The notes beneath the pieces are model-generated. The model was not told the origin of the DNA. It saw only the letters and a list, made by a program, of their open reading frames with translations, and searched no databases. A stretch of DNA of 64,000 nucleotides, taken from the IMG/VR virus record IMGVR_UViG_3300010163_000003, positions 154,432-218,431 of that record. One strand, 5' to 3'. This document shows positions 49,270 to 63,773 of this stretch, one piece after another. The position numbers and the translations under genes are program-made. The DNA comes from a virus (Duplodnaviria; Caudoviricetes). Position 1 is the stretch's first letter, and every line of letters starts with the position of its first letter.

Positions 49270-52200
49270 ATGTTGAGCATCATCATCGCTATCATGAACG
49301 TGCTCATGGGGAAGATTGTCTCTAAGGCAGTCAAAGCCATGAAGCAAATCACCACCGGACTGTATGTGCAGTATAACACAGAACTCTGCAACGAAAACTA
49401 TATCTGGTATCTTGCTCGCAAAAAGCATGCAAAGCTCTACCGTCACGACCCCAAGCGTGCTTATAAGAAAGCACTGAAGACCCTCGAAAAAGAAGCGGAA
49501 AGAAGAGCGGAAATAGAAACCCGTATTCGCATAAACCGTATGTTAGGCAAGTATTATAACGACGACAAAAACGTAAGGCACCTCATTCGCTTGTTCAACT
49601 CCAAGTATCATAAAGAATCTATCCCTGATGACCTTATGACTATAGGTTATCAGGTTCTTAATTACCTCAGAAATGAAGGTAATAAGATGTATGAACAGAC
49701 TCGTAATGCCAAGATTGGCTGTGCAGCTATACTCACTATTATGGGTGTTATCGATATTGGCAACTTCGAATCTGACGCAAAAGACGGCAAAATCGTTATC
49801 AACAAAGAAGCTCTTGAGAAAATCTCCGATGTTACCCTGAAAAACAATCTGGATAAGGTGCTTAGTGGAGAAAAGCTTACAAGTGTGTATAATGGCTATA
49901 CTAAGGGCAGGCAAACCGCTGTATGGAGCAATATGCTGAATGCACTTCGCAAATATGTTAAGTATATTGACCATGACGTAGTAGTAACCAAGGAATGCGT
50001 ACCTGTCATTAGCCTTGCAGAAAACGCTTTCTACACTTGGAAGAAGAATGAAGAAGGCAAAAACGTACCCGTCCTTAACACAATAGAAATCGATGGACAA
50101 ACTTATTGCTACGTTCAGCTTAACGATGAAAATGGAGAAAGCAGAGTCGTTTCTAGGGGCAATGTAAACGAATATAAAGAACAACACAATGGACGTGAAC
50201 CATACTTTATTGTTGATAATGCCTCTTCCAGTGTATTAGCGCGTAAAGTATTCAATATTAGCAAAGACAATCTTATCCTTACAGTTAAGCCACAAAACAA
50301 ATCATCAGAAGCAACACAATCCCTTATGGAAAAGATACTGGATAATGGGTTCTACGACGCAAGCACTGGTACTCTTTTTAAGTTCCTCGCAATGCCTGCA
50401 AGCAAAATGAAAACCTGTCAGTTCGTATTCACAAGCATCCCAGTAGCGTGGGTTAATAATCCTAATGCGTATATTGGCTATGTATGGGGAATGGCTATGG
50501 GCCTCACCAAGTATGCCAATGTATTTCGCAAATATCACAACGATACAAAGCACATCGTTACGATGGATGAAGTTGTAAACACTTTCAGGAATGAAGAATT
50601 CCAGGGATATAGGCTTGTTAATGAAAATGGGCTTGTTAATGTTGCAAAGACATGGAGTCGCTTTGGTCTTGCAATGTCTTCCACATTCTCACTCATGGAG
50701 CTTGTTACCAAAAATCCAGAGATGAAGGATGTATACGACAAATCCATTGGCGTTGCTAAAACTTTACGTGTAAAAGATGCTAGCGTAAGAGTCAAAAGCC
50801 CGTTCCACGTAATAAGTGGTATCTTCAACATCCACAAGCCTCTGACAACAAAGCAGATGGAGGAAAACACCCGCAAACGCTTTGATAAACTCGTCGCTTT
50901 CTGTGACAGAGAGTCCGAAATCATAAATGTACCATCCATTAAAGATAACCTTAACAAGGCTAAAGAACTCTTTGCGGACAACAAAACGGACGAATGCGTT
51001 AATACTCTTGAAGCTATTGTAGCTGATGTGAAGAAGCAAATTGAATATGAATACGCAATAGTGGAAGAATATAACCGTTCTGGGAAGAAGCTCGTAGACG
51101 AAATAGGTATGTTTGCCGAGAACGTAGGCACTCTTGCGTTGCTGTCAGATAAGATAAAAGACCTGAAACTTGACATTAAGAACGGCATTGCTGGCGAAGA
51201 CGAAAAGACTTTGACACCTGGCGATGGCGAAATGCTTGCAAATATCAAAATTATTGCTGGTATAGCTACTCTTCTTAAGAAAATTACCATAGATGAGTAT
51301 AAAATCATCATGGACTGGTGGAATAGCAGCGATAAAATTCTTGCCAACATCGAAGAAGATAGCGAAATCCGCAACATTATTGCCAAAATACCACCAGCTT
51401 ATACTATAAGGCATGGCGGGAAGAAGGGCTTGTTGAAACTCGCAGACCTTGGTCAGCTTCTTGATACAAAGAAAAATGGCGAAATAATCGTTGACAACTA
51501 CGATATTCTTACCCCTGACAGTGCCGAGAAGTTTAGTGTTGAAAACTGGGAAGATGCAGAGTTTAGCGTTTGCTTGGTAGGTAAAGTTCACAGTGATAAA
51601 GATTTTATCAACACCAATGCTTTTATGCTGAGCGCACTGAAACTGTCACCGAAGCAAATCGTGTCTATCGCTAAGACAATCATTGATGAAATGGTTGATG
51701 CGCTGAAAGACCCTGACAAAGCCGTTGCATTCTTTGCAAAATATAGTGACGACTTCAATTGTCAAAATGGTCCTGCATCTCTGTTGGCAATGAATAAGAA
51801 ACTCATCAAAATGGACATCGTTCAAACTGCTATATTGACAACGATTAAAGTTGTAATCAATAATATGGCATGCGGTAGAATGAAAGTTCCTGGCAACACA
51901 TCATTCATTTCTTGTGACTGGGCTGAACTGCTTAACCTGTGGTTGAAAGATGAAATGGCTGAAGCAGGTGTGCACATTAAAACACTTGATGAGTACGCAA
52001 AAGAACAAGGCATTAATGAAGGCTATAAAGGTCACTATAGCAATAAATCTTGTGAGGCCATGATAGCTCGTAGCCCTGGATATGGCTGGCAAGAGATTGT
52101 TAAGCTTACTCTCGTCAAAATCGATGCATGGTGGTGGAACCATGACGTATGCGAACTGAGCGTATTCGACGGTATCTGGGAGAACCTTCAGGGTGCCGAT

Positions 52201-54369
52201 TTTGATGGTGACAAAATTCACCTTATTTTCAATAATAATCCAGTTGGCAAAATGTTCGTAGACGCTATCCGCCACGGGACTAAACTCATCAATAAGAGAA
52301 ATCTTGCTAACTTAATCTCTATTTACCTTACAGAGCCAGGTGTTATAGTCGAAGCCAAGAAGAAGAAAGAATTCACTTGGAAAGCTATTACAGCTATGCT
52401 CATTGGAACCCTTAATGGCGATATGGTAGGTTTGTTGTCTAAGTCAGCTATGACTGCTATTGATTTAGCCAATGAACTTATTATCCTGTCCGAAATGTCA
52501 AGTCTTACTGGCTATAAAGTTAAGTTCTATAACAAATTCGATCAAGAAAAGTTTTATATGGGACGTCTTGGTCATAAAGGCGAAAAGATGTTTGTAAGTG
52601 ACAGGTTTAATAACCCTGAATCTGCTGGTCTTGAAGTGCCATGCGATGAAAATATCGGAAAGCCAATCGATCCTCGCCTTACTGTTAACGGCGACTATAT
52701 TCAGAATGAACTTACTGCTGAAGAGAGAAAAGCTCTTGGAGATTTGTTCGATGTTGATGGAGATAAGCGTCTGTATACTGGATGGTTTATTGGCACATGC
52801 AATGGCGAGAAATTCATTTATGTAGAAGCTCCTACACTTGGCAACCGTCTCCCTGCTATTGATAAAAACTCAGGTATGACTAAGACAGAAAAGATAATGA
52901 TTCATGGCAGAGAAAAGTCCGTCAAAGTATTCTCATATACCCGTAAGACATGGTCTTTTATTGCAGATATAAGTCGTATGGGCAAGGATGAAGTAGAAAA
53001 CGGCTACTACTATGAAAAGCTCGTTAAGGGAGAAACCATGCTTGCTGAAGACAACAATATTCTTGCTGGCACTAAAACTGCTGAAGAACTTGAAGACATT
53101 GCTGTTGAATTTGCGAAGCTTGGCATCGTTAATGGCTGTGAATGTGGGCGTGAAATTGACCGCACAAAGAATGGTTTTGGCCATGTCTGGGGTCTTCTCA
53201 TTAATGCAATCGCAGCTCATCGTGTATACTCTGATTGGATGCGCAAAGGCCAGTGTAATGAGCTTCTTGTCCGCAATCAGTATATCAGCACATCAACTCT
53301 CGGAGTTCTGTATCAATATGTACAAGCCCGTGAAAAAGAAATTGACAAAATAATGGGCAATGGCATCAAAATGGTTCCTTATGTTGCTACTCTGCTTAAT
53401 AAAGACGAGTATGATGGCGTATGGAAAATTATTAAGAGCAATGGCGGAACAAACAAAGGTTATACAGTCACGAAGCTTGAAGTCATTCGTAACTCATACC
53501 TTAATGAAATCAGGGGTGTTGACATTAACGAAAATCCTGAACTGATTGAATGCGCTCAAAAGGCTGCATGCAGAAGGATAATCGAAATGTGCGATGAACT
53601 CAATGTTCCTTATACAAGCGCGGCTGTTGCAGCATTCTTTATGGGAACTAAAGAAAAGACAGTTGGAAGCTTCTCTTGGTTGCTTGCTGATGAGCTTGCT
53701 GAAGTTCTGAAAAGAGACCCTGATGCACGCAGGATTATCAAACTACCTTGCCGTGAAGTTATTAGCCTTAAAGTAGAGTCAGACAACTGGCTGATAGCTA
53801 CTATTCCTGCCTATAAGGTCAATCGTAAGGATGGTAAGAAGAAGGTCAAGATAGGTACTAAGGAATTCCCGATAGAGCAACTTGATGGCGTAGCCCAAGG
53901 AGAAATACCGAACGAAGACATCTTCCAGATGGGCGATTGCAACTTTGCGGCTATTCCTTGGAAAAACAATAGCGGCGATACCCTTATCACTGACAATATT
54001 GCTCCTCGTTTTAATATCATTGGTAAGGACAAAACTAAGGAAGAAATCGGAGCCATTGCAAATGCTTTGTTCAATAAGGCTGATGGTGTACTCACCAAAA
54101 TCATTGTTGACGAAGAAGGCAAAATCGTTGGTCTCATGGACCTTGGAGACAAGAACATTGTTACTATCGAAATTGACACCTATAGCCTTCCAAAATCATT
54201 CACTGGCACAAATTATAAAGCTGTTGCTACTGGTCTTGAAATCGCTACTTTTGTTGGCAAAACATTCCGTAGCTATGGCGTTAACAAAGAAACTGAAGCC
54301 TATAAAGGCGAAAAGTGCAAAACATCTATTACTGCCGGGAATAACATTGTTAATGTATTCGTCCGCTAA
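49270..54369 (+). CDS. Single-subunit two-barrel RNA polymerase, RdRP (QDE-1)/YonO-like family
   Basis: Ordered family motifs TPGDG, PPAYTIRHGGKKGLL, GRMKVPG, IARSP, catalytic LQGADFDGD (DFDGD at 52198-52212), VGLLS, EIDRTKNG and STSTLGVLY. Start moved to ATG 49270 behind GGAGG (1699 aa). Confidence 0.9.
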   Translation: MLSIIIAIMNVLMGKIVSKAVKAMKQITTGLYVQYNTELCNENYIWYLARKKHAKLYRHDPKRAYKKALKTLEKEAERRAEIETRIRINRMLGKYYNDDKNVRHLIRLFNSKYHKESIPDDLMTIGYQVLNYLRNEGNKMYEQTRNAKIGCAAILTIMGVIDIGNFESDAKDGKIVINKEALEKISDVTLKNNLDKVLSGEKLTSVYNGYTKGRQTAVWSNMLNALRKYVKYIDHDVVVTKECVPVISLAENAFYTWKKNEEGKNVPVLNTIEIDGQTYCYVQLNDENGESRVVSRGNVNEYKEQHNGREPYFIVDNASSSVLARKVFNISKDNLILTVKPQNKSSEATQSLMEKILDNGFYDASTGTLFKFLAMPASKMKTCQFVFTSIPVAWVNNPNAYIGYVWGMAMGLTKYANVFRKYHNDTKHIVTMDEVVNTFRNEEFQGYRLVNENGLVNVAKTWSRFGLAMSSTFSLMELVTKNPEMKDVYDKSIGVAKTLRVKDASVRVKSPFHVISGIFNIHKPLTTKQMEENTRKRFDKLVAFCDRESEIINVPSIKDNLNKAKELFADNKTDECVNTLEAIVADVKKQIEYEYAIVEEYNRSGKKLVDEIGMFAENVGTLALLSDKIKDLKLDIKNGIAGEDEKTLTPGDGEMLANIKIIAGIATLLKKITIDEYKIIMDWWNSSDKILANIEEDSEIRNIIAKIPPAYTIRHGGKKGLLKLADLGQLLDTKKNGEIIVDNYDILTPDSAEKFSVENWEDAEFSVCLVGKVHSDKDFINTNAFMLSALKLSPKQIVSIAKTIIDEMVDALKDPDKAVAFFAKYSDDFNCQNGPASLLAMNKKLIKMDIVQTAILTTIKVVINNMACGRMKVPGNTSFISCDWAELLNLWLKDEMAEAGVHIKTLDEYAKEQGINEGYKGHYSNKSCEAMIARSPGYGWQEIVKLTLVKIDAWWWNHDVCELSVFDGIWENLQGADFDGDKIHLIFNNNPVGKMFVDAIRHGTKLINKRNLANLISIYLTEPGVIVEAKKKKEFTWKAITAMLIGTLNGDMVGLLSKSAMTAIDLANELIILSEMSSLTGYKVKFYNKFDQEKFYMGRLGHKGEKMFVSDRFNNPESAGLEVPCDENIGKPIDPRLTVNGDYIQNELTAEERKALGDLFDVDGDKRLYTGWFIGTCNGEKFIYVEAPTLGNRLPAIDKNSGMTKTEKIMIHGREKSVKVFSYTRKTWSFIADISRMGKDEVENGYYYEKLVKGETMLAEDNNILAGTKTAEELEDIAVEFAKLGIVNGCECGREIDRTKNGFGHVWGLLINAIAAHRVYSDWMRKGQCNELLVRNQYISTSTLGVLYQYVQAREKEIDKIMGNGIKMVPYVATLLNKDEYDGVWKIIKSNGGTNKGYTVTKLEVIRNSYLNEIRGVDINENPELIECAQKAACRRIIEMCDELNVPYTSAAVAAFFMGTKEKTVGSFSWLLADELAEVLKRDPDARRIIKLPCREVISLKVESDNWLIATIPAYKVNRKDGKKKVKIGTKEFPIEQLDGVAQGEIPNEDIFQMGDCNFAAIPWKNNSGDTLITDNIAPRFNIIGKDKTKEEIGAIANALFNKADGVLTKIIVDEEGKIVGLMDLGDKNIVTIEIDTYSLPKSFTGTNYKAVATGLEIATFVGKTFRSYGVNKETEAYKGEKCKTSITAGNNIVNVFVR

Positions 54370-54376
54370 AGATATT

Positions 54377-54411
54377 ATAGGAGGGGGAGAAATCCCTCTC
54401 CTATTTTATTT
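54377..54411 (+). terminator. Intrinsic terminator after polymerase gene
   Basis: ATAGGAGGGGGA-GAAA-TCCCTCTCCTAT followed by TTTATTT. Confidence 0.75.
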
Positions 54412-54459
54412 ATATAGTTCACAAATCAACTGAATATTAAATTTATGGAGGTATATATC

Positions 54460-55569
54460 ATGAAAAGCGCTATTATTAATGTTGTTGTCGTTCCCACCAT
54501 GTCCGTTCTGTCCGCTGCTGATAAATCCAAAGTTCGCACTATTGTTTCTGCTGGCCTCAATCTTCCCGTCAACATTACCCGCTCTGATTTCGAGGCAATA
54601 TATGATAACGCAAAAGACATGACTCCGACAATCCACGATTTCATTCACGTTCGCGTAAACCGCAACAAAAAGCTTGAAGGCTTTTCTATCGTTGAAGACG
54701 ATAACGTTATTGATTCTAATGATGTCGCAGAAGAAAACAACTCTGACTACTTTGACTCTCTTATTGATGAAGCAATTGGCGCTCCTGTTGCTGAAGACAA
54801 CGCTTCTGATGATATTGATATTCCGTTTGCTTTTTCTGATGAAGAACTTAATAATATTAATATGGCACTCGATGATTCTAATGTCCCTGTAGCTGAAGCC
54901 GAACCCGTAAAAGAAGAGACTGAGCATATGACCGCTCTTGAAAAAGCCATAAACGATATGATGAATTCTTATTCTGATAACGAGCTGTACGATTATAGCG
55001 CTTACGACCCTGATCATATTCCTGATGAAGATAAGATGACCGAAGAAGAAGTCGAAGCAGCATGGGAAGCTTACGACAATTTTGTTCCTGAAGAAGAAAC
55101 AGCTCAGGCAGTTATCGATGAAGAAGCTATTGAAACTGTTAACAACAATGATGTTGATCGTGAATTTGTCAAATTTGTACACGATAAAGCTGTTGCTGGC
55201 AAATATCCGAGGTGGACTCAGAATATCGATAAGCGCAATCTTAACGAATATGCAACCATGATTGGCAAGTCTATTGAAGATATCGTTGAGAAATATCTGA
55301 TGGCTAACAAAAATAAACACGGCTATATCACATATTACTCCGTAAGACCTGAGTTCATCGCTAGATACTACGAACAAGCTTGCTATACGTCTTCTGACTA
55401 TAAGTGGTTTGTTGTAGTTAAAGGCAATAACGTAGAGCTTTACGAGAAAAAAGGCAACGAACATGTTTTCAATAAAACTGTTAATGCTACAGAATCACCT
55501 GATGCATATACTAAAGCTCTCAAAGTTCTTGAGAGTTATATGTTCCGTAAAGGTGTGTGGGCAGAGTAA
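54460..55569 (+). CDS. Highly acidic early protein
   Basis: ATG 54460 after GGAGG. Central ~160 aa are about one-third Asp/Glu and contain DDIDIPF. Confidence 0.75.
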   Translation: MKSAIINVVVVPTMSVLSAADKSKVRTIVSAGLNLPVNITRSDFEAIYDNAKDMTPTIHDFIHVRVNRNKKLEGFSIVEDDNVIDSNDVAEENNSDYFDSLIDEAIGAPVAEDNASDDIDIPFAFSDEELNNINMALDDSNVPVAEAEPVKEETEHMTALEKAINDMMNSYSDNELYDYSAYDPDHIPDEDKMTEEEVEAAWEAYDNFVPEEETAQAVIDEEAIETVNNNDVDREFVKFVHDKAVAGKYPRWTQNIDKRNLNEYATMIGKSIEDIVEKYLMANKNKHGYITYYSVRPEFIARYYEQACYTSSDYKWFVVVKGNNVELYEKKGNEHVFNKTVNATESPDAYTKALKVLESYMFRKGVWAE

Positions 55570-55587
55570 TTAGCCTTCGGCATTTAG

Positions 55588-55633
55588 AATGGGTTAGGGT
55601 TAGAATAACTTCTTCCCTAACCCATTTGTCTTT
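55588..55633 (+). terminator. Terminator-like hairpin
   Basis: AATGGGTTAGGG / CCCTAACCCATT perfect 12-bp stem followed by TGTCTTT. Confidence 0.6.
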
Positions 55634-55726
55634 GGAGCTGGAAAATGTAAATTCTCCACTCTCTAGACGAGAAGTCGTGATGAAAATTGTCACGACTATT
55701 CATAATGCCAGTCGCTGAAAAGATGG

Positions 55727-55754
55727 ATGAAAACAGCAAAGCTGTAAGCTCTGA
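55727..55754 (+). promoter_or_regulatory. Triloop-hairpin motif copy 1 (candidate phage RNAP promoter)
   Basis: ATGAAAACAGCAAAGCTGTAAGCTCTGA. Confidence 0.65.
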
Positions 55755-55802
55755 TGATAGTTATATCATTATCGTCATAACATCATCTAGGTGCAAACTT
55801 GG

Positions 55803-55830
55803 ATGAAAATAGCAAAGCTATAAGTTATGA
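55803..55830 (+). promoter_or_regulatory. Triloop-hairpin motif copy 2 (compensatory variant)
   Basis: ATGAAAATAGCAAAGCTATAAGTTATGA: the stem C-G pair is replaced by T-A. Confidence 0.65.
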
Positions 55831-55885
55831 TGATAGTGATATAATCTATCATCAATCCCATCTTTAAAGAAGGAGGTAGCTGAAA

Positions 55886-56554
55886 ATGGCTACTAAGTTA
55901 GAACAGATGAAGGCAGAAATGGAAAAGGGTTCTGAGGTTGAAACCAATACCCCTATTGCTTCTGCTAAGGATGATGCATCCGCTCATGTAAATACTGCTC
56001 CGGGTCAGACCAGGAAACCTTCTTGGGTTCCGCGCTGGGTAGCAGTAATGGGCGCTGACGGGCATTTTGCTAAGTTCGCCAAGGTAACGGCTACTGCTCC
56101 AAGGGAACAAGTGGTTACTGGCGACGACGGCAAAATCGTAGCGCTTAACATAGTAGCGGGCAGCACTCTCATCGGAACGGTTGATGTTCCCTCTGACTCT
56201 TCGATATGGTCTGCAAAGACTGCACTGAACAGGGTCAACAAGGAATTCACCGGGATGATTTCTAATCGCAAGATTGAATCTCCGAAAGATGGCAGTGCTG
56301 ACGTAATCTCGATAAGGTTCGGCAATGATTTAGAGCTGCGCATTTACGTGGGCGGCATCAATAACAGTGCCATTCCTGCTGAGATTGCGAACAAGCATGG
56401 TCTGGTGGTCTTCCATGGCTTACAGAGCATTGGTGGCTGGATGAATGACACTCTCATAACCAGCAACTTTGATGAAGCCATTGATTGGATAAAAGCTCGT
56501 ATAGCTCAACCCGACAATAAGACTGCGGACGAGAATTCTTCAATTCCTTTCTAA
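55886..56554 (+). CDS. Early protein with SSB-like acidic C-terminal tail
   Basis: RBS AAGGAGG; ends DENSSIPF. Confidence 0.75.
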   Translation: MATKLEQMKAEMEKGSEVETNTPIASAKDDASAHVNTAPGQTRKPSWVPRWVAVMGADGHFAKFAKVTATAPREQVVTGDDGKIVALNIVAGSTLIGTVDVPSDSSIWSAKTALNRVNKEFTGMISNRKIESPKDGSADVISIRFGNDLELRIYVGGINNSAIPAEIANKHGLVVFHGLQSIGGWMNDTLITSNFDEAIDWIKARIAQPDNKTADENSSIPF

Positions 56555-56567
56555 TGCTTTAAGGCTA

Positions 56568-56603
56568 AGGGGTACTCAGTGGTGGGTGCCCCTCGCTTTA
56601 TTT
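56568..56603 (+). terminator. Intrinsic terminator
   Basis: AGGGGTACTCA-GTGG-TGGGTGCCCCT then CGCTTTATTT. Confidence 0.6.
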
Positions 56604-56627
56604 GTAAGCATTAGAAGACATAGCTGT

Positions 56628-56655
56628 ATAAAAACAGCAAAGCTGTAAGATCTGA
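56628..56655 (+). promoter_or_regulatory. Triloop-hairpin motif copy 3
   Basis: ATAAAAACAGCAAAGCTGTAAGATCTGA. Confidence 0.65.
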
Positions 56656-56740: not shown

Positions 56741-57043
56741 ATGGCAAGACCTCTCATGTCATCCCTGAACGAGACAACTATCGAACAGGCTAGAGTTCTC
56801 ATGGTGAAACTCCTGCCAGAAATCGATGTGTCTATCGCTACGGGACAGTACGTGATATGCGCCGTTATGGGTTACATAGCTGCACAGAAGCGCAACGACA
56901 TCAGCCTCGAAGACGTTTATGACTTTGTCATGAGACTCTGCGGGGAGCATCGGTGGCGTGTGAGCAAGTGGCGAATAGGTCACACTCTACGCTACAGAGT
57001 GCGCAAGTTCGTTGCTGCTGTAAGCGAACTCGTAAAGGTGTAA
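56741..57043 (+). CDS. Hypothetical early protein (100 aa)
   Basis: ATG 56741 after AAAGGAGG. Confidence 0.65.
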   Translation: MARPLMSSLNETTIEQARVLMVKLLPEIDVSIATGQYVICAVMGYIAAQKRNDISLEDVYDFVMRLCGEHRWRVSKWRIGHTLRYRVRKFVAAVSELVKV

Positions 57044-57130
57044 AGTAAAGCGGACCCAGTTACGTCAAACCAAGCGTAGCTGGGATTCTCTTTAAAGAAC
57101 AAACTCAGATATTACTAGGAGGTAATCATC

Positions 57131-57340
57131 ATGAAAAGATACAAGGCTCACATACAGTATGGCGTAGGCGAAGAAGCTCCTTGGGGTTTCGATATTGTCT
57201 GGATTGATACCAAGACTATTATCGGCACTAGCCAAAAGATTGCAGATGCCATTGAAGACCTCAAATACAGCGCGATGATGGACTGCTATCTTCCTTCCCA
57301 TAAACCATTTGCAGACATCGCCTATTCTGAACCCGCATAA
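57131..57340 (+). CDS. Hypothetical early protein (69 aa)
   Basis: RBS AGGAGGT. Confidence 0.7.
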   Translation: MKRYKAHIQYGVGEEAPWGFDIVWIDTKTIIGTSQKIADAIEDLKYSAMMDCYLPSHKPFADIAYSEPA

Positions 57341-57343
57341 ACA

Positions 57344-57389
57344 CAATCCCCCTCGCTCCTTGCTTCACGGTAAGGGACGAGGGGGATTG
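57344..57389. terminator. Long, probably bidirectional terminator hairpin
   Basis: CAATCCCCCTCG...CGAGGGGGATTG, ~20-bp imperfect stem. Confidence 0.6.
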
Positions 57390-57493
57390 CTTTGTAATAT
57401 TTTTTTGCGAAGTGGGTTTTTAAGAATAGAGCATACAACGAGGCTTTCTAAATAGTTCCTTCGGCGTAGTGGCTTCTACATGGCTTTAAAATA

Positions 57494-57521
57494 ATGAAAA
57501 CAGCAAAGCTGTAAGCTATGA
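57494..57521 (+). promoter_or_regulatory. Triloop-hairpin motif copy 4
   Basis: ATGAAAACAGCAAAGCTGTAAGCTATGA. Confidence 0.65.
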
Positions 57522-57542
57522 ACAAGCAACCACAATTTCTCG

Positions 57543-57591
57543 TAATCGGCTCTAACGAGCCGATTATAGCATTTTTATTCGTATTTGTCAA
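57543..57591 (-). promoter_or_regulatory. Antisense consensus sigmaA promoter A with overlapping palindrome
   Basis: Minus strand TTGACA-17 bp-TATAAT with extended -10 TG; palindrome TAATCGGCTC-N4-GAGCCGATTA at 57543-57566. Confidence 0.8.
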
Positions 57592-57611
57592 GAGTTAAGG
57601 AGGACAAAATC

Positions 57612-57968
57612 ATGAAACTGTTCAATTTATTCCGTACACATATAAACAAGACTGCTGAAACCATGAAAACAGTTACGCTGTTTCAGGTATCAAGACGCGA
57701 CGAAGAAGGCATGCTCAGGAATCTCTCTGGCGATTATGTACCTCTTTATCGTATGGAGCCTGTGTTCACTTCTGGAATGAAAGGTGACACCGATAACATT
57801 CTGGCCAACAGCTTTAAGTTCTTCAATGGCATTGACGAGTCTACCTCGATGTTGAATTACTCCATGACAGTGGGCGATGTGGTGTGCATAGATAGTGCGT
57901 TCTATAGGTGCATACCACAAGGATGGTCTTACATGGGTGGAGACCTAGACATAGGAGGCGCTATCTGA
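57612..57968 (+). CDS. YodL-like protein
   Basis: FKFFN...YSMTVGDVVCID..FYRC...GW matches the YodL-family SLSVGDVV...YY.D..GF signature. ATG 57612 after AAGGAGG. Confidence 0.6.
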   Translation: MKLFNLFRTHINKTAETMKTVTLFQVSRRDEEGMLRNLSGDYVPLYRMEPVFTSGMKGDTDNILANSFKFFNGIDESTSMLNYSMTVGDVVCIDSAFYRCIPQGWSYMGGDLDIGGAI

Positions 57969-57978
57969 GCATAAGAAT

Positions 57979-58005
57979 AGCCTACGGTATCCACTGCCGT
58001 AGGCT
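57979..58005. terminator. Hairpin / terminator
   Basis: AGCCTACGGTA-N5-TGCCGTAGGCT with T-rich flanks on both strands. Confidence 0.6.
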
Positions 58006-58015
58006 TATTGCTTCG

Positions 58016-58065
58016 TAATTGGCTTTTCTAAAGCCAATTATAGCATAAAAATATGCGAATGTCAA
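58016..58065 (-). promoter_or_regulatory. Antisense consensus sigmaA promoter B with overlapping palindrome
   Basis: Minus strand TTGACA-17 bp-TATAAT with TG; palindrome TAATTGGCTTT-N3-AAAGCCAATTA at 58016-58040. Confidence 0.8.
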
Positions 58066-58102
58066 GCCCCCTGTGCGAATTTATTATGAGCACAGGGGGC
58101 TT
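58064..58102. terminator. 13-bp perfect hairpin between promoters B and C
   Basis: AAGCCCCCTGTGC / GCACAGGGGGCTT. Confidence 0.55.
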
Positions 58103-58130
58103 TAGGCACCTTTTAAGGCTTTTCCTATCG

Positions 58131-58180
58131 TAATCGGCTTTCCATAAGCCGATTATAGCATGAAAAACCCTAAAAGTCAA
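58131..58180 (-). promoter_or_regulatory. Antisense near-consensus sigmaA promoter C with overlapping palindrome
   Basis: Minus strand TTGACT-17 bp-TATAAT with TG and AT-rich upstream region; palindrome TAATCGGCTT-N5-AAGCCGATTA at 58131-58155. Confidence 0.8.
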
Positions 58181-58215
58181 GCAAAATACGTAAAAATATA
58201 TGGAGGTATAAGAAA

Positions 58216-58644
58216 ATGACTACCACAACTACCAAAACTATGGCTGAAATGACCCAAGAATGTAAAGAAGTGCTGGATTACTGCTCCAAAAAAGCTAAAA
58301 ACGGCATATTCTATGAGGGTACATTGCTCAATTCTATCTCCTGGAACGCTATTCATAAGATGTACAGCCGCCGTGACGTAGGTGGTTATACCTATATTAG
58401 CCTTACAGAAGAAGAAAAAGCGCTTTGCAACACTCTTTATAGAGAAGTAAGGTGCTTTTTAAAGTCTCGTAAGACTAAAGGAGGGTATAATCAGTATATA
58501 ATCAACGAAGAAAAGCTCTATGTCACCACCGTAATAGAGACTCCTAACGAGATTCCTGTGGTATTAAATACACATGAAGAGGAAATTCTTGAAGAAGAAG
58601 TCCCTAATGCCACCCCAATTGCAGTAGTAAACATCCCATTCTAA
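58216..58644 (+). CDS. Early protein with acidic tail ending IPF
   Basis: RBS GGAGG; ends HEEEILEEEVPNATPIAVVNIPF. Confidence 0.7.
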   Translation: MTTTTTKTMAEMTQECKEVLDYCSKKAKNGIFYEGTLLNSISWNAIHKMYSRRDVGGYTYISLTEEEKALCNTLYREVRCFLKSRKTKGGYNQYIINEEKLYVTTVIETPNEIPVVLNTHEEEILEEEVPNATPIAVVNIPF

Positions 58645-58652
58645 GCAAAAAC

Positions 58653-59056
58653 GGTGTTTTACCCTAGGCTAAACCAACATATTGGCATGAAAGTGTCTAT
58701 TATCTAGCCTAGGGAACACCTAAATATGGCATGAAAAAGAGGTAATTTCCTGGCAAAAAGCTGGCCACATTATTGCCTACTCATCTTATTTCATGCAAAA
58801 TGTAGCATAGATATACACAAATAGTCTAATCACTATCCTTATAGGGATTTAGATATATTATTCATTGTATATTCTATGCATAAAAGTATTAGTATGTTCT
58901 ATAAGAAGAAGGATTATACATGGTCATAGGGTCATTTAATCTTTTTATGGGCATGTTTTATTAGATATCTGGTATTATTGGTTACGGGGTATCTCTTCTT
59001 CTTGTCAATATTGGTCAGGTATAATACTTTTCTTTTATGAAATAGTGTTGTACCTA
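58653..59056 (+). ncRNA. Putative ~400-nt structured RNA
   Basis: ORF-free gap with five consecutive stem-loop domains (58653-720, 58729-796, 58805-879, 58903-59003, 59017-055), a GAAA tetraloop and many plus-sense G-U pairs. Confidence 0.5.
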
Positions 59057-59113
59057 TCTTTTATTTTTGTAGGTATAAACCTTTAAAACCATACATGAAA
59101 GGATGTTATTGGC

Positions 59114-59338
59114 ATGTTTAATCCCGCAAATTTTAAGGCTCCTCCTGCTCTCAAAGCAGAGTGTACTCTTCCCGATGGCAATGTTCTTCTCGTAGACGTA
59201 AAAGATATTCATTCCAAGATGAAGTTCGATTATGAGACGGGAAAACAGGTATGCGTATACAGGTACGTCCGCGCTGAGGATGGAAGCATTATCGACCTTA
59301 TGAAAGCCAAAATCAAATATATCAAAGAGAGCAAGTAA
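59114..59338 (+). CDS. Hypothetical early protein (74 aa)
   Basis: RBS AAAGGA. Confidence 0.65.
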   Translation: MFNPANFKAPPALKAECTLPDGNVLLVDVKDIHSKMKFDYETGKQVCVYRYVRAEDGSIIDLMKAKIKYIKESK

Positions 59339-59415
59339 TATCTATAACCCTGCGGGCTTTTTGTTTTATAGGGCATAACTTAAAAATTATGAATTACTTT
59401 AGGAGGTAAATTACT

Positions 59416-59772
59416 ATGGCAAACTTCAAAGACTTCTTCCTGAATAGCAATAACAAAGACTGCTTTATCGGGAATAAGGTAATCTATGGGCAGAGCTATT
59501 ACTGGGTATGCGTAAACGAAACCGGAGAAGACCCGTCTGATATCGACATGGAGCGCTTCATGCTTTTAGGGCAGCTTGATGAGTTGGAAGAAAACATCAA
59601 TACCCTTGAGATGGAGCGCTCTAGCAATGAAATAACCCTCAAAGTGTTGAGGACAGCGAGAGACGAGCTACTCAAGGTTATCTATGAAAACTATCTGCCT
59701 GAACTAAAAGAACGGTTTGCAGACAGCATAGAAGGGATGAGCGATTACGCAATCATTCATATCACCTACTAA
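59416..59772 (+). CDS. Hypothetical early protein (118 aa)
   Basis: RBS AGGAGGT. Confidence 0.7.
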   Translation: MANFKDFFLNSNNKDCFIGNKVIYGQSYYWVCVNETGEDPSDIDMERFMLLGQLDELEENINTLEMERSSNEITLKVLRTARDELLKVIYENYLPELKERFADSIEGMSDYAIIHITY

Positions 59773-59793
59773 AAGCTGATGGAAATCGTTAAA

Positions 59794-59821
59794 ACGAGAA
59801 CAGCAAAGCTGTAAGCTGTGA
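59794..59821 (+). promoter_or_regulatory. Triloop-hairpin motif copy 5
   Basis: ACGAGAACAGCAAAGCTGTAAGCTGTGA. Confidence 0.65.
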
Positions 59822-59854
59822 TAGAATTAATCTATAATACCGGAGGTATATGCT

Positions 59855-60187
59855 ATGGCAAAAGTAAAAACTCTGGAAACAGAAATTAACGAAACAATTA
59901 AAGCTATAAATAAACTAGAAGCTTTTCTTGAAGAAGTTGATTCTATCACAGACCTGAATCCGTTCATCGCTGATATGGCTAATAAGGCTGAATGGGAATT
60001 GGACGGATTAAACTGGCAGCTTTATGCGTTAGAACAAGATAGCGACCCATATTATCGGCTTGAGCGCATCAATGACTGTATCGTTGATTGCTGGATGTAT
60101 GGCGATGTTAATGGCATGAAATATTTCCAGCAACAAGCGAAAGAAATCAGGGCACAGCTCATAACTAAAAAAGCGCATAAAAGCTAA
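59855..60187 (+). CDS. Hypothetical helical early protein (110 aa)
   Basis: RBS GGAGGT. Confidence 0.7.
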   Translation: MAKVKTLETEINETIKAINKLEAFLEEVDSITDLNPFIADMANKAEWELDGLNWQLYALEQDSDPYYRLERINDCIVDCWMYGDVNGMKYFQQQAKEIRAQLITKKAHKS

Positions 60188-60205
60188 TCAACATCTCAGT
60201 CATAT

Positions 60206-60249
60206 ATGAGTGCCGCTTATTTGCCCATTATGTAATAAGCGGCACTCAT
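60206..60249 (+). other. 16-bp perfect intergenic stem (possible RNase III site)
   Basis: ATGAGTGCCGCTTATT / AATAAGCGGCACTCAT with no U-tract. Confidence 0.45.
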
Positions 60250-60277
60250 CCACCCTTTGATTCATAGGAGGTTTATC

Positions 60278-60466
60278 ATGAAAACTATCAATAACAACAA
60301 TCACATCTCCACGATTACTCGTACCCCTATACTTGCTTCTAGTGATCAAAACATAAAAGCTAACAATGATTACTTCTGGTATGAAGGATACGGCCTAATT
60401 CTCAGAGCTTATGATGATTGGTCTGACTGTCTTGGTGATGGAGATTACGATGTTCCTCACGAATAA
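60278..60466 (+). CDS. Hypothetical early protein (62 aa)
   Basis: ATG 60278 after AGGAGGT. Confidence 0.6.
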   Translation: MKTINNNNHISTITRTPILASSDQNIKANNDYFWYEGYGLILRAYDDWSDCLGDGDYDVPHE

Positions 60467-60478
60467 GAAGGTGTTTAC

Positions 60479-60604
60479 ATGAAAGAACTCTTTAAACGCA
60501 TCAAGGCGACGAAGAAAACCCTTGAGACCGCCGATAAGAAGCTTGATAAAATTCAGAATGAATTGGACAGGCTTAACCGTAAGTATATCAACCTCGTCAA
60601 ATAA
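60479..60604 (+). CDS. Small coiled-coil protein (41 aa, not in ORF track)
   Basis: MKELFKRIKATKKTLETADKKLDKIQNELDRLNRKYINLVK; RBS AAGGTG. Confidence 0.6.
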   Translation: MKELFKRIKATKKTLETADKKLDKIQNELDRLNRKYINLVK

Positions 60605-60620
60605 GAAAGGATGTTTTACA

Positions 60621-60791
60621 ATGACAATCGCAACCGTAGACAATCGCATTGATTACCTTGAGGCGCTCATTCTCGAAATGCAGGCCGAAGCCGAAATGGA
60701 TTTCGATGTCCAAGAAAAGATTTACGAAATAGAGACCGAACTCGATGAGCTGTACATCCGCAGGGCACATCTGATTATGGCACAGTCCTAA
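60621..60791 (+). CDS. Small acidic helical protein (56 aa)
   Basis: ATG 60621 after AGAAAGGA. Confidence 0.65.
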   Translation: MTIATVDNRIDYLEALILEMQAEAEMDFDVQEKIYEIETELDELYIRRAHLIMAQS

Positions 60792-60864
60792 CTACCCACG
60801 TAGATAGGGCTTTTTATTTTGGTAGAATAGCCGATATATAACACATAAGAAAGGAAGTGCCAAA

Positions 60865-61014
60865 ATGACCAGCTACGAAATTAATCTCCTTAAAGAACTC
60901 TGGAAGGCACACAAAGAAATCGGACACCTTCTCCCGAATATGATGGAAACCTTTCAGAACCTTGTAAACAAATTCGAATTCTCTTACAACGAAACCTATT
61001 GTGGGCAAATATAA
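60865..61014 (+). CDS. Small protein (49 aa, not in ORF track)
   Basis: MTSYEINLLKELWKAHKEIGHLLPNMMETFQNLVNKFEFSYNETYCGQI; RBS AGAAAGGA; terminator at 61024-61052. Confidence 0.6.
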   Translation: MTSYEINLLKELWKAHKEIGHLLPNMMETFQNLVNKFEFSYNETYCGQI

Positions 61015-61023
61015 TATTCACAT

Positions 61024-61052
61024 GACCCTGCGTAAGCGGGGTCTTTTATTTT
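61024..61052 (+). terminator. Intrinsic terminator
   Basis: GACCCTGC-GTAA-GCGGGGTC then TTTTATTTT. Confidence 0.75.
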
Positions 61053-61105
61053 CGTAAAGGAAAAACAAAACATTATATACACACGTAAGAAAGGACGTAA
61101 TAACT

Positions 61106-61273
61106 ATGCGCAAGAATCTTAACAGGAAATCGTACAACGAGAAAGACAACCGTTACATGCAGTATGTCCCGTCCGGCTATCACAAGATTATCGACAGGTA
61201 TGGCTGCGTGCATGTCGTGCCGAATGAGGTGGTCTATACCAAAATCTCTGTTCCAGCCGTGGCGAAAGTTTGA
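61106..61273 (+). CDS. Small protein (55 aa, not in ORF track)
   Basis: MRKNLNRKSYNEKDNRYMQYVPSGYHKIIDRYGCVHVVPNEVVYTKISVPAVAKV; RBS AGAAAGGA. Confidence 0.6.
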   Translation: MRKNLNRKSYNEKDNRYMQYVPSGYHKIIDRYGCVHVVPNEVVYTKISVPAVAKV

Positions 61274-61280
61274 ACATCGC

Positions 61281-61312
61281 AGCTCCATCGAAAGGTGGAG
61301 CTTTTTATTTTT
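61281..61312 (+). terminator. Intrinsic terminator
   Basis: AGCTCCATC-GAAA-GGTGGAGCT then TTTTATTTTT. Confidence 0.75.
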
Positions 61313-61357
61313 ATAGAACAATAGTTCAAAATAAAGATATGGCTGGAGGTAAATATC

Positions 61358-61642
61358 ATGGCTAAGCAAACCTTAACCCTGACTCTGGATGCGAATGAAT
61401 ATCACGAGCTGATGAACAAAATCGGCTACTTCGAGAACGAATTGTACTGCGAAGAAACCTGCTCATTTAGCAAAGAAGAGTACGCCGCCAGAGCTGACAT
61501 TCGCACTAAGCTCTATGACGGCCTTCGTGAAGCCCATCGCAAACTTGTCCGTTACCTCGACGAAGCTGAGGATAAAATCCGTCAGGAAAACCTGAAAAAG
61601 CATACCGACTTTGTCGTGGACGGATTTGGCGCTCCGTTCTAA
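61358..61642 (+). CDS. Early protein ending in APF
   Basis: RBS GGAGGT; ends DFVVDGFGAPF. Confidence 0.7.
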   Translation: MAKQTLTLTLDANEYHELMNKIGYFENELYCEETCSFSKEEYAARADIRTKLYDGLREAHRKLVRYLDEAEDKIRQENLKKHTDFVVDGFGAPF

Positions 61643-61649
61643 ACCAGTC

Positions 61650-61692
61650 AAGGCACCGCCTATCTTCTCTCGATAGACGGTGCCTTTATTTT
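61650..61692 (+). terminator. Intrinsic terminator
   Basis: AAGGCACCGCCTATC / GATAGACGGTGCCTT then TATTTT. Confidence 0.65.
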
Positions 61693-61707
61693 ATGGAGGG
61701 AAGCAAA

Positions 61708-62613
61708 ATGGACAAATCTATGGAAGCCATTGAGAATGAACTCACTAAGAAATACTTTCTTGGCTTTATAGAAAAAACATCTCCAAAACACATAAGAAAG
61801 GATGGTACTACAATGCAAATTGGTATCACAGAACACGGAGACCCTGGCAAAAGCATGTGCTGGCTGAATAAGGCTATTGCCGATGATAATATCAAAGGCA
61901 TGATTCTTATCACTAAGACCATTACCAAGCAATTCGGCAATGCGGTGCTTAAGCTCATGCATCAGAAACCCATTATCATCCATGCTACTTGCACAGGTTG
62001 GGGTTGTACTCCAATGGAGCCAAAGGTATTCTCACCTGACGTACAATTCAAATCTCTGAACAGGCTCATAAAGGCGGGATTTCCGGCCAAGAACGTGGTT
62101 ATTCGCCTTGACCCTATCATTCCTATAGGCGACTGGGAAAAGCGCGTAAGGTACGTTCTGAACTGCGCATTGGGCCTTCAGGTAGTACACCATGATATAA
62201 AGCGCGTTCGAGTATCTGTTATGGATAACTACAAACATGTTCAAGCGCGCTTTAATGACAGGCAATGGAAAATACCCTATGATAGTAACTTTCATGCGCC
62301 TCAATATATCATGGAAAACATTGCAAAGCTCTTGAAAGAATACTCAGATGAGCTTATCTTTGAGACTTGCGCTGAAGATGGGCTGGCAAGAGCGGCGGCA
62401 TGCCAAGGGTATAACATGGAAATGACAGGTTGCTTGAGTATGAAAGACCTGGACATCATGGGATTACTCGACAAAGTGCCAACAAACATCAGCATAAATC
62501 CACAGAATCGCGGCATGTGCAAATGCCTTAACTTTAAAACCGAACTCTTTCCTCGCGACAGAAAATATTGCGATAATGGCTGCGTATACTGCTTCTGGAA
62601 AGATAGTTATTAA
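61708..62613 (+). CDS. DUF1848 / spore-photoproduct-lyase-like radical SAM protein
   Basis: ILITK, TCTGWG..MEPKV, VIRLDPII, ETCAE, GC, RGMCKC and C-terminal CDNGCVYC (CxxxCxxC). Start at ATG 61708 after GGAGG. Confidence 0.7.
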   Translation: MDKSMEAIENELTKKYFLGFIEKTSPKHIRKDGTTMQIGITEHGDPGKSMCWLNKAIADDNIKGMILITKTITKQFGNAVLKLMHQKPIIIHATCTGWGCTPMEPKVFSPDVQFKSLNRLIKAGFPAKNVVIRLDPIIPIGDWEKRVRYVLNCALGLQVVHHDIKRVRVSVMDNYKHVQARFNDRQWKIPYDSNFHAPQYIMENIAKLLKEYSDELIFETCAEDGLARAAACQGYNMEMTGCLSMKDLDIMGLLDKVPTNISINPQNRGMCKCLNFKTELFPRDRKYCDNGCVYCFWKDSY

Positions 62614-62618
62614 ACCGC

Positions 62619-62648
62619 ATAGGGCTGCGTGAGCGGCCCTATTTTATC
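62619..62648 (+). terminator. Intrinsic terminator
   Basis: ATAGGGCTGC-GTGA-GCGGCCCTAT then TTTAT. Confidence 0.65.
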
Positions 62649-62675
62649 TTTAAGAAAGCATAAGGAGGTATTAAT

Positions 62676-63656
62676 ATGTATTTCCGTGGGCAATATAACT
62701 TTTTGTCTAACTTCTATCCTTGCGCGGTACACGATGACTACGGCTTGCAATATAGCTGTGTTGAAGCAGCATTTCAAGCGTCTAAAGTCATAGGTATCGA
62801 GGAGCGCATGAAGTTTACCTTTATGGATGGCTCTAGTGCAAGAGAAATGGGCCGCAAAGTTAAACTTCGTGATGATTGGGAGCTTGTAAAAGTTCCTATC
62901 ATGGATAGGTTACTTCAAGAGAAATTCTCTAATACCGTTCTTAGGGAATTATTAATGGGAGTAACGGATGAAATAGTCGAGGATAATACTTGGAGCGATA
63001 CGTTCTGGGGTCGCTGTAATGGCAAAGGCGAAAACATCCTCGGCAAACTCATTACGAATATCCGTGACTATTATCAGCAAAAGACAAAATGGAAAAAGGC
63101 GTTTACTGTTTGCTTTACTGGGCCAAGACCTAAAAGTCTATATGGCTATAACCGTGAAGCATACAAGCCATTAGTGAAAGCCCTGACAGAAGAGCTTGCA
63201 AATTTGCATGTCTATGAACATTTCGGGCATTTCATTAGTGGCGGTGCACAAGGGTTCGATCAGTTGGCATTCTGGTGCGTGCATCATCTCAAAACTGACA
63301 AAGATAAGCTCTTTAAAGTAAGAAATGAGGTAATGCTTCCAAGTAAGGAATTCGGAAACAGGTGGAAAACAAGCGGTTCTCCGTTCTGTACTGATGAGTT
63401 TAACCTGATGAAGAAACTTGCTGACGATGTGGTATATGTCCATGAGCATACGGCTGACTTCAATGAACTCTATAAAGCCTTAAATGACCGCAATCACGCT
63501 ATGGTAAATAGTGCGGATTTGGTTATCGGTTTATATCGCGACCATAGCTATCTTGATCCTAAAATGCCGGGAGGCACCGCTGAATGTCTGAGGTATGCTA
63601 TCAACAAGAATAAAGAAACAAGAATCTTTAGCCCAGATAAACTCAAATTCATCTAA
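62676..63656 (+). CDS. NADAR (YbiA-like) domain fused to YspA-type SLOG domain
   Basis: NADAR: FLSNFY, EAAFQASK, DDWELVK, KFS, DTFWG, GENILG. SLOG: CFTGPRP, FISGGAQGFDQ, RNHAMV, GGTAECLRYA. Confidence 0.85.
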   Translation: MYFRGQYNFLSNFYPCAVHDDYGLQYSCVEAAFQASKVIGIEERMKFTFMDGSSAREMGRKVKLRDDWELVKVPIMDRLLQEKFSNTVLRELLMGVTDEIVEDNTWSDTFWGRCNGKGENILGKLITNIRDYYQQKTKWKKAFTVCFTGPRPKSLYGYNREAYKPLVKALTEELANLHVYEHFGHFISGGAQGFDQLAFWCVHHLKTDKDKLFKVRNEVMLPSKEFGNRWKTSGSPFCTDEFNLMKKLADDVVYVHEHTADFNELYKALNDRNHAMVNSADLVIGLYRDHSYLDPKMPGGTAECLRYAINKNKETRIFSPDKLKFI

Positions 63657-63698
63657 TTAATTACCCCGGCTAACGCCGGGGTATCAGTATTATAATCA

Positions 63699-63726
63699 AT
63701 AAAAACAGCAAAGCTGTATGTTATGA
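63699..63726 (+). promoter_or_regulatory. Triloop-hairpin motif copy 6
   Basis: ATAAAAACAGCAAAGCTGTATGTTATGA, followed by an inverted 15/16 copy of its core at 63745-63760. Confidence 0.65.
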
Positions 63727-63773
63727 TGTTTAAATAACATAATTTACAGATTTGCTGTTTAGGAGGTAATAAC

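Follow-up and report, generated by a model that had tools for sequence, protein, structure and literature searches.

A six-copy hairpin-plus-box motif between two RdRP-type polymerase genes of an uncultured jumbo phage as a candidate phage-specific promoter class

How single-chain RNA polymerases (RNAPs) of the YonO/QDE-1 type find their promoters is still an open question, and for YonO itself (phage SPbeta) the promoter sequence was left undefined (PMC5467207). The early promoters P1-P3 of phage N4 are DNA hairpins with a conserved heptamer centred at -11 and are read by a T7-like enzyme (PMC4496689), and for phage P23-45 a separate promoter motif has been mapped for each of its two two-barrel RNAPs (10.1101/2022.12.01.518664). 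For 0305phi8-36, a Bacillus thuringiensis jumbo phage with a genome of 218,948 bp, the genome description (Hardies, Thomas & Serwer 2007, PMC2147016) presents gp99 as a putative DNA-dependent RNAP from the family of RNA-dependent RNA polymerases (RdRPs), describes the small monocistronic genes beside it as a host-takeover region and proposes a phage-specific promoter class of 21 bp with 14 copies as the target of gp99; the host polymerase is not excluded there. Here we present a 28-bp motif that occurs six times between two RdRP-type polymerase genes, pol1 and pol2, of a related uncultured phage. The window, i.e. the whole stretch of DNA that was analysed, comprises 64,000 nt and is the last 64 kb of a complete virus record of 218,431 bp (IMGVR_UViG_3300010163_000003, G000 in the coordinates below), the ends of which overlap. 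Coordinates without a prefix refer to the window. On balance we think that the motif is probably a phage-specific promoter class for early-type genes, judging from its sequence and placement.

The closest named relative of this virus is 0305phi8-36, with a large terminase that is 44% identical. The genome has a GC content of 34%, and its AGGAGG ribosome sites are strong. The long structural arm, which is encoded on the minus strand (G000 69-203.5 kb), and the plus-strand arm are joined at a divergent region (window ~48.6-49.2 kb). From there the plus-strand arm extends to the end of the contig, resumes at G000:1 and continues to ~69 kb, 84 kb in total. 0305phi8-36 follows the same genome plan, with a Pfam RdRP-type polymerase beside small monocistronic genes and a repeated, co-oriented, phage-only intergenic motif that was proposed as the promoter of this polymerase. 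L001, L003 and L017-L020 are further uncultured relatives with the same layout. The comparisons below cover 25 kb each of L001 and L003 and 43 kb of 0305phi8-36 in two stretches. The initial annotation of the window had considered the pairing of a two-barrel polymerase with hairpin promoters to be undescribed. This does not stand, since a promoter class had already been proposed for gp99 (PMC2147016) and the promoters of the P23-45 enzymes have been defined (10.1101/2022.12.01.518664). The idea of phage-specific promoters for an RdRP-like polymerase is not new in this lineage.

The six copies of the motif are located as follows:

55727..55754, plus strand, motif copy 1, in tandem with copy 2 at a spacing of 76 nt
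55803..55830, plus strand, motif copy 2, one stem pair changed from C-G to T-A, last base 55 nt before the start of a 222-aa gene
56628..56655, plus strand, motif copy 3, 35 nt past a terminator at 56568-56593
57494..57521, plus strand, motif copy 4, past a terminator near 57345-57390 and followed by a strong leader hairpin at 57542-57567
59794..59821, plus strand, motif copy 5, 22 nt past the upstream stop codon, last base 33 nt before the ATG at 59855
63699..63726, plus strand, motif copy 6, 22 nt past a hairpin of class B (see below; GCTAACGC apex at 63669-63676)

The pattern search for the 28-bp motif returned exactly six matches, all on the plus strand and without mismatches, where none were expected in 100 shuffles. 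The core AGCAAAGCT was found at these six sites only when both strands of the whole genome were searched. The exact search thus confirmed the six same-strand intergenic copies of the initial annotation. A scan with a profile and a position weight matrix gave, besides an inverted partial copy next to copy 6 (see below), one extra weak match at G000:7511 (E = 0.04), which we dropped as a seventh copy because it lies inside a coding sequence and its stem is broken; the genome-wide scan therefore left no additional acceptable copy. The copies span G000 210.1-218.2 kb, the 8 kb between pol1 (plus one gene of 374 aa) and the contig end. It had been suggested that they are confined to the arm that begins with the polymerase gene. 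We indeed found none elsewhere, but they occupy only 8 kb of the 84-kb arm, and the cluster corresponds to the interval between pol1 and pol2 and not to the entire arm.

Across the six copies 20 of the 28 positions do not vary. The flanks, in contrast, show no relationship outside the tandem pair of copies 1 and 2. All six can form a 5-bp stem with an AAA loop (ACAGC-AAA-GCTGT) in which every pair is intact, and copy 2 carries a C>T and a G>A change at the paired positions 8 and 18; both features were already described correctly in the initial annotation. Counted from the loop centre, T+13, G+14 and A+15 are invariant (class A). The combination that is typical for N4 promoters, i.e. a stem of 5-7 bp, a 3-nt loop and a conserved apex, is present in six of six copies. 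As in N4, the apex heptamer lies within inverted repeats and there are few copies, which precede early-type genes. The position of the heptamer is also similar, ~11 nt upstream of the start in N4 and, for the GCAAAGC of the motif, centred 13-15 nt before the TGA. The two systems differ in two respects: the N4 apex is of the very stable GCGAAGC type, whereas GCAAAGC here sits on a weak stem; and N4 uses a T7-like reader, whereas the polymerases present here are two-barrel enzymes. Extrusion of the hairpin from the DNA, which for N4-type promoters depends on supercoiling and SSB, and with it a cruciform mechanism, is possible at the motif but can only be suggested tentatively. A further, stable hairpin starts next to the TGA of copies 1 and 2:

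55752..55777, plus strand, hairpin starting 1-2 nt from the conserved TGA of copy 1 (z -2.7); the equivalent of copy 2 is at 55828-55854 (z -2.6)

If transcription starts at the TGA, these would be 5'-terminal RNA hairpins. For the remaining copies the downstream hairpin is weaker or set further 3'.

Each of the six copies lies between genes and has the same orientation as these, with its last base 33-90 nt upstream of a start codon that is preceded by a ribosome-binding site (RBS). The expected location upstream of an RBS was therefore recovered for each copy. The hairpin or terminator that was said usually to lie just upstream is present for copies 3, 4 and 6 but not for copy 5: copies 3 and 4 follow canonical hairpins with T-runs, copy 6 follows a hairpin with a conserved apex and there is nothing upstream of copy 5. 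Copies 3, 4 and 6 stand directly past the terminator or hairpin that closes the preceding gene, which is the usual order of terminator and promoter, and the succession of class B hairpin and motif at copy 6 fits this order. We also observed an inverted, imperfect copy of the 5' half of the motif at 63737-63764, 11 nt after copy 6 and overlapping the next RBS. With copy 6 it makes up an inverted repeat of 16 nt, which contains a single mismatch and stops at this RBS.

The motif itself is ruled out as a plus-strand terminator because its stem is not followed by a T-run (AAGCTATGA). Read on the minus strand, the 5-bp stem (about -3 kcal/mol) is followed by 4-5 T, a very weak terminator at most. 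We consider it highly improbable that the copies are weak leftward (minus-strand) terminators or a dispersed repeat without function. The minus strand does read TTTTCAT or TTTTTAT after the hairpin, a simple scan flags five copies as terminator-like and copy 4 lies ~40 nt downstream of a perfect leftward sigma-70 promoter. However, normal terminators are much stronger than a 5-bp stem, no leftward promoter lies close to any of the other five copies, and this reading would explain neither the nine conserved bases on the far side of the hairpin nor the invariance of the motif next to fully diverged flanks.

A sigma-70 promoter should have its -35 and -10 hexamers separated by 16-18 nt, and the -10 should read A at position 2 and T at position 6. 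Between the genes at 54.3-64 kb no plus-strand site was better than 9/12, in agreement with the earlier statement that there is no convincing plus-strand sigmaA promoter; genome-wide there are 25 consensus sites with at least 11/12, mostly within genes. Among the motif copies copy 2 alone passes the loose sigma-70 scan (9/12). Position 2 of the would-be -10 reads A/C/C/A/G/A across the copies and the best-conserved part of the motif is the would-be spacer. This variable position and the conserved spacer rule out the motif as a sigma-70 promoter. Its location behind terminators and ahead of leaders, the missing sigma-70 fit and the hairpin at the TGA of copies 1 and 2 together favour a non-sigma-A start signal.

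The mechanism we propose is as follows. The six copies would act as phage-specific, non-sigma-A promoters and would drive five short units of small early-type genes, plus the DUF1848 and NADAR-SLOG genes, between the two polymerase genes. The signal would consist of two parts, the short hairpin-forming inverted repeat ACAGC-AAA-GCTGT and a box whose invariant T-G-A, at 13-15 nt 3' of the loop centre, would be the place of transcription initiation. One of the phage's own two-barrel polymerases would most likely be the reader.

Signals of the same architecture occur elsewhere in this genome and in relatives:

G000 7458, 8381, 8998, 9507, 9545, 10782, 14547, 16527, 21502, 28573, 42637 and 49355 and window 63669, plus strand, class B sites of this genome
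L019, 3 copies with a CTAACG apex
L017, 7 copies with a CTAACG apex
L018, 7 copies with a C-TAC-G triloop, stems of 3-8 bp followed by CAT[GA]AGTTATGA
0305phi8-36, 19 exact copies with a CGTTCGCACG apex, all on the gene strand of the non-structural arm and none exact on the opposite strand

Class B consists of the GCTAACGC apex with at least five flanking pairs and a following T(A/T)T-TGAAWTAT. All 13 copies are intergenic, on the plus strand and between genes of the replication arm; 12 of them are located downstream of pol2 (G000 7.4-49.4 kb), and the thirteenth precedes motif copy 6 by 22 nt. Their stems co-vary, with 59 of 65 cells paired compared to 31 ± 4.3 in shuffles, a value that was reached in none of 2000 shuffles. 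L017, L018, L019 and 0305phi8-36 carry PF05183 polymerases. When the families are aligned at the loop centre, T-G(-A/T) is found 11-14 nt 3' in every one of them whatever the stem length (class B: T+12 G+13; L019: T+13 G+14 A+15; L018: T+11; 0305phi8-36: T+13 G+14). The distance of the box is fixed from the apex and not from the base of the stem, which argues for a protein that reads apex and box together. The L018 box AGTTATGA is nearly identical to the 3' half of the motif, AAG(C/T)TATGA, and in 0305phi8-36 T-G-T-A follows the CGTTCGCACG hairpin at the same distance from the loop centre as here. Five other co-oriented families (class B, L017, L018, L019 and 0305phi8-36) thus share the architecture of the motif, several of them with co-varying stems, and this suggests that a hairpin-plus-box signal is shared within this phage group, with the motif as one of its variants. 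The CGTTCGCACG family is probably the published 21-bp gp99 motif. The 0305phi8-36 hairpin differs from the motif in its sequence, its variable stems, its 6-nt loop and its short T-run, and its copies are spread across the whole non-structural arm, as those of class B are here, whereas the motif is clustered in 8 kb.

P23-45 resembles this phage in having two paralogous single-chain two-barrel RNAPs and two motif classes that are partitioned over the genome, and a further likeness may be that its first enzyme transcribes the gene of the second. In contrast to the motif, the P23-45 promoters are not described as hairpins, and the P23-45 virion enzyme is fused to the tape measure protein, which is another difference.

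No copy of the motif was detected in L001 or L003, which are syntenic relatives. Their equivalent cluster shows GAC-NN-GGCTYTAAAC upstream of the RBSs instead, and its small genes have no detectable homology to the genes here. A degenerate pattern of the motif had no match among the viral contigs. We rejected L010, the one match among the metagenome contigs, as a relative with the motif, as it is a chance match with no shared homology.

A hairpin on the sense strand would also form in RNA. The copies could therefore be an RNA-level element of read-through polycistronic transcripts, with the hairpin and its flanks bound or cut by a protein of the phage or the host as a processing or stability site, but we regard this as unlikely. 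It would agree with the class B and CGTTCGCACG hairpins, which lie just past stop codons as is typical of 3'-end and processing signals, and with copy 5, which has no upstream terminator and would thus be transcribed from upstream. Copies 3 and 4, on the other hand, each come right after a strong canonical terminator, so that read-through RNA with these copies would be scarce. Conservation in the flanks covers 6 nt on the 5' side and 9 nt on the 3' side of what is a very weak hairpin, there was no Rfam match in 48-64 kb, and the motif does not overlap an RBS, which makes translational control unlikely.

Another candidate function, and one that we judge quite unlikely, is that of a DNA operator, a 13-bp palindrome with asymmetric flanks through which a phage regulator would switch the early cluster while the true promoters lie elsewhere or overlap. 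The palindromic core, the restriction of the copies to one gene cluster and the tandem arrangement of copies 1 and 2, which is common for operators, would suit such a role, and the sigma-70 promoters on the minus strand of the cluster suggest that transcription may be convergent and regulated there. Yet the motif has a strong asymmetry and, without exception, the orientation of the genes, neither of which is required of an operator, and there is no other promoter candidate between the terminators and the genes. Matched changes in both half-sites, as in copy 2, would not be selected for by a dimeric repressor, and the fixed geometry between loop centre and TGA across variable stems points to reading of apex and box.

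Returning to the promoter reading, we examined the enzymes that could act as its reader. The first of them opens the arm:

49270..54369, plus strand, pol1, QDE-1/YonO (Pfam RdRP) type single-chain two-barrel RNA polymerase (Pfam, profile, model)
52198..52212, plus strand, catalytic DFDGD codons of pol1 (translation, motif scan)
54377..54404, plus strand, terminator hairpin with T-run after pol1

The start of pol1 is probably the RBS-preceded ATG at 49270 (~1699 aa); the database gene call starts at 49228 (1713 aa). Pol1 matched Pfam PF05183 (RdRP) with 57.9 bits (E = 1e-15; gathering cut-off 23.8 bits) and contains ADFDGDK at residue 1018. An alignment of the core of 43 sequences including pol1 showed R97, K102, K137, R317, P319 and D360/362/364 to be invariant, and in pol1 neither the DFDGD triad nor R-x-P nor any of the basic second-barrel residues has been lost. 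The profile derived from this alignment matched QDE-1 in the PDB at E = 4e-18 and also plant RDR2. The AlphaFold2 (AF2) model of the pol1 core reached a predicted local distance difference test (pLDDT) score of 79 and a predicted template modelling (pTM) score of 0.79. Foldseek with this model returned QDE-1 (2J7N, 7.8e-11), RDR2, gp66 of crAss phage phi14:2 (6VR4, 2e-6) and P23-45-type non-virion RNAPs of the gp64 type (8F72, 8F5M), with weaker matches to the phiKZ non-virion RNAP and bacterial beta'. By fold score pol1 is much nearer to QDE-1 and RDR2 than to gp66. YonO and gp66 belong to the same superfamily as pol1, with a single chain, two double-psi barrels and DxDGD. Profile and model comparison thus identify pol1 as a QDE-1/YonO-type two-barrel polymerase, as the initial annotation had anticipated. 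An exhaustive protein search gave 64 clusters of pol1 relatives, all with at most 33% identity; megablast and tblastn of pol1 against the phage collection gave no match and a word-based protein search returned pol1 itself only.

Pol2 is a second gene of the PF05183 family. Its first exon is an open reading frame (ORF) at G000:2047-4080 (56.8 bits) and it continues as an ORF of 577 aa that starts at LDFDGD (G000:4421-6154). The 340 nt in between are a group I intron (RF00028, 52.3 bits, E = 3.8e-11; gathering score 50 bits; the match covers 337 nt, L012:4065-4401), which sits immediately 5' of the codons for the catalytic DFDGD. Both exons align collinearly with pol2 of L003, which has 1251 aa and no interruption (41% and 36% identity, junction at residue 679/680), so pol2 is predicted to be intact after splicing. 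On this evidence pol1 and pol2 are intact RdRP-type enzymes that flank the motif cluster. The same gene order is seen in L001 and L003, each with a pol1-type gene (1744 and 1838 aa, respectively) followed by one of the pol2 type.

Two further proteins outside the window have to be considered. The first is a tail-locus protein of 3588 aa (G000:128687-139453, minus strand) in which a motif scan detected YEDK, K-x7-K, R-x-P and DFDGD in the order of beta and beta'. DFDGD was present in 4/4 of the homologues compared and YEDK in 2. The protein had no Pfam and no PDB match, hhalign against the RdRP profile was not significant, the AF2 model failed (pLDDT 36) and no relative was found in the phage collection that includes 0305phi8-36. 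We therefore dropped it as an established polymerase, as family, profile and fold support are lacking, and retain it as a motif-level candidate only. The second is a protein of 332 aa (G000:69708-70706, minus strand; L016:709-1707) with a C-terminal sigma-70 region 4 (G000:69744-69887) at 38.5 bits, above the Pfam cut-off, and a match to the sigma-70/ECF (extracytoplasmic function) superfamily at E = 1.8e-9. No sigma region 2 was detected in it, and it may be a phage sigma-like factor. PF00562 and PF00623 had no match anywhere in the genome. The search for a T7-like RNAP (PF00940) had no match in the genome either, but its control was silent too. Upstream of several structural operons we noticed ATATAATA-like boxes without a -35 element.

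These two proteins suggest another way of reading the motif, namely as a promoter for the host RNAP with the 332-aa sigma-like factor, or for the 3588-aa DFDGD enzyme delivered with the virion, which would act on pre-early genes in the manner of N4 and P23-45. We consider this fairly unlikely. The region 4 match and the retained catalytic motifs of the tail protein speak for it, and the small genes near the divergent point resemble the first-expressed genes of N4 and P23-45. Within the motif, TGAAAAC in the 5' part and nTGA 16 nt later loosely recall ECF-type spacing, which was counted for the sigma factor. What stands against it is the missing region 2, a conserved 'spacer' that is atypical of sigma promoters and the lack of Pfam, PDB and profile support, of a usable model and of any relative in the phage collection for the tail protein.

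There are thus up to four candidate readers of the motif: pol1, pol2, the 3588-aa tail protein and the sigma-like protein. The initial annotation had paired the motif one-to-one with pol1, but the genome also encodes the second RdRP-type polymerase, the DFDGD tail protein and the sigma-region-4 protein. As the sequence assigns the motif to no single reader, the pairing with pol1 is unsupported in the form in which it was stated. A comparison with 0305phi8-36 leads to a more limited argument. Here there are two RdRP-type polymerases and two hairpin classes. In the 43 kb of 0305phi8-36, by contrast, we saw one hairpin class, no gene other than gp99 carries a polymerase annotation and no pol1-sized gene occupies the syntenic place. 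Gp99 matched the pol2 exons with 69 and 47 bits and pol1 with 62 bits, and its length of 1218 aa matches the ~1254 aa of pol2; by these comparisons gp99 is pol2-like. The 0305phi8-36 hairpins are distributed like class B. With a pol2-like gp99 and class B-like hairpins, pol1 would be left for the motif, a weak argument and a guess from parsimony. We therefore hold the specific pairing of the motif with pol1 as possible but tentative. A doubtful extension is that 0305phi8-36-like jumbo phages have a hairpin-promoter code for RdRP/YonO-family polymerases, in which pol1 and pol2 would each recognise their own apex (GC-AAA-GC and C-TAAC-G, respectively) at a fixed distance from a shared T-G-A box.

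Several observations weigh against the promoter reading. The DNA hairpin of the motif is weak (-3.6 to -1.9 kcal/mol). The exact motif was present in no other sequence searched, so there is no conservation of the exact element across species. The initial annotation had deduced selection on pairing from copy 2. The covariation within the copies amounts to one event, however, and 98 of 500 shuffles reach it, so this covariation is only suggestive. For crAss phi14:2 gp66, the early transcripts were found to share no upstream motif (10.1101/2020.03.07.982082). In class B and in the 0305phi8-36 family a short T-run and a location just past a stop codon are frequent; the sister families may be terminators, processing sites or combined terminator-promoter units, which weakens the analogy with promoters. 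Some genes of the cluster have no motif, e.g. those at 54445, 58216, 59114 and 59416. Finally, the sequence singles out none of the four candidate readers.

The genes downstream of the copies and one promoter on the opposite strand are listed below:

55886..56554, plus strand, 222-aa gene following copies 1 and 2, matched by neither Pfam nor PHROG
56741..57043, plus strand, small gene after copy 3, start chosen by RBS
57612..57968, plus strand, small gene after copy 4
59855..60187, plus strand, first gene of the copy 5 unit, which extends through DUF1848 (61693-62613) and NADAR-SLOG (62676-63656)
63774..64000, plus strand, SLOG-type gene after copy 6, continuing over the contig end (G000:3-446), after which the arm runs to pol2 (G000:2047-6154)
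57563..57591, minus strand, perfect TG-extended sigma-70-type promoter, antisense to copy 4

The NADAR-SLOG (YpsA) fusion is followed by a stand-alone SLOG paralogue, with a DNA repeat of 65 nt at 72% identity. DUF1848, YpsA/SLOG and DUF488 genes recur beside the RdRP-type polymerase in L003, L017, L018, L020 and 0305phi8-36 (gp97). Two further TG-extended sigma-70 promoters on the minus strand are near-perfect (58065-58037 and 58180-58152). Together the three form paralogous leftward units (57542-57591, 58016-58065 and 58130-58180) with TTGACA-17-TGCTATAAT and at once a AATCGGCT...AGCCGATT hairpin. From their sequence these units would yield short antisense or non-coding RNAs within the cluster. 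L001 and L003 have a similar unit, TTGACA-17-TATAAT and then a AATCTGGAT hairpin. At 58650-59110 the window has ~460 nt with no convincing ORF and no Rfam match, possibly a non-coding RNA gene, and L001 and L003 have a conserved non-coding region of ~560 nt at that position (L001:18778-19340). The early cluster of these two relatives also contains tandem GC-rich repeats of 48-73 nt of the GCTTGGCGCGGTGGCTTCGCC type (L001:16411-16791, L003:16668-16803) that have no counterpart in the window.

Non-coding words in the divergent region are conserved among distant relatives (window 48640-48900; L001:9491-10000; L003:9642-10000; L014:6395-6671). AAAACGCCAGTATAGG is present in the window, L001 and L003, with only a looser TATAGGCGAAAAA in 0305phi8-36; L001 and L003 have ATATATATATTTTT in an AT-rich run; and CCCCACCCC is common to all four divergent regions compared. 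The divergent region of 0305phi8-36 spans the boundary of a terminal repeat of 6,479 bp, and for this reason the conserved words may be packaging or end-related signals.

What makes the locus informative is that short discrete signals, six copies of 28 bp, lie beside two intact enzymes of the family, while the second class in the genome and the sister families in relatives provide built-in controls for specificity. If each polymerase does have its own apex, one phage would contain two orthogonal transcription classes that are free of sigma factors. The QDE-1/YonO branch would thereby gain its first defined promoter logic, which would be a case of convergence with the T7-like virion RNAP of N4. 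A true pairing would also offer compact orthogonal pairs of polymerase and promoter and insight into how a two-barrel enzyme reads structured DNA. If the pairing is false, the motif is still a clean marker of a class of early genes in little-known jumbo phages of Firmicutes.

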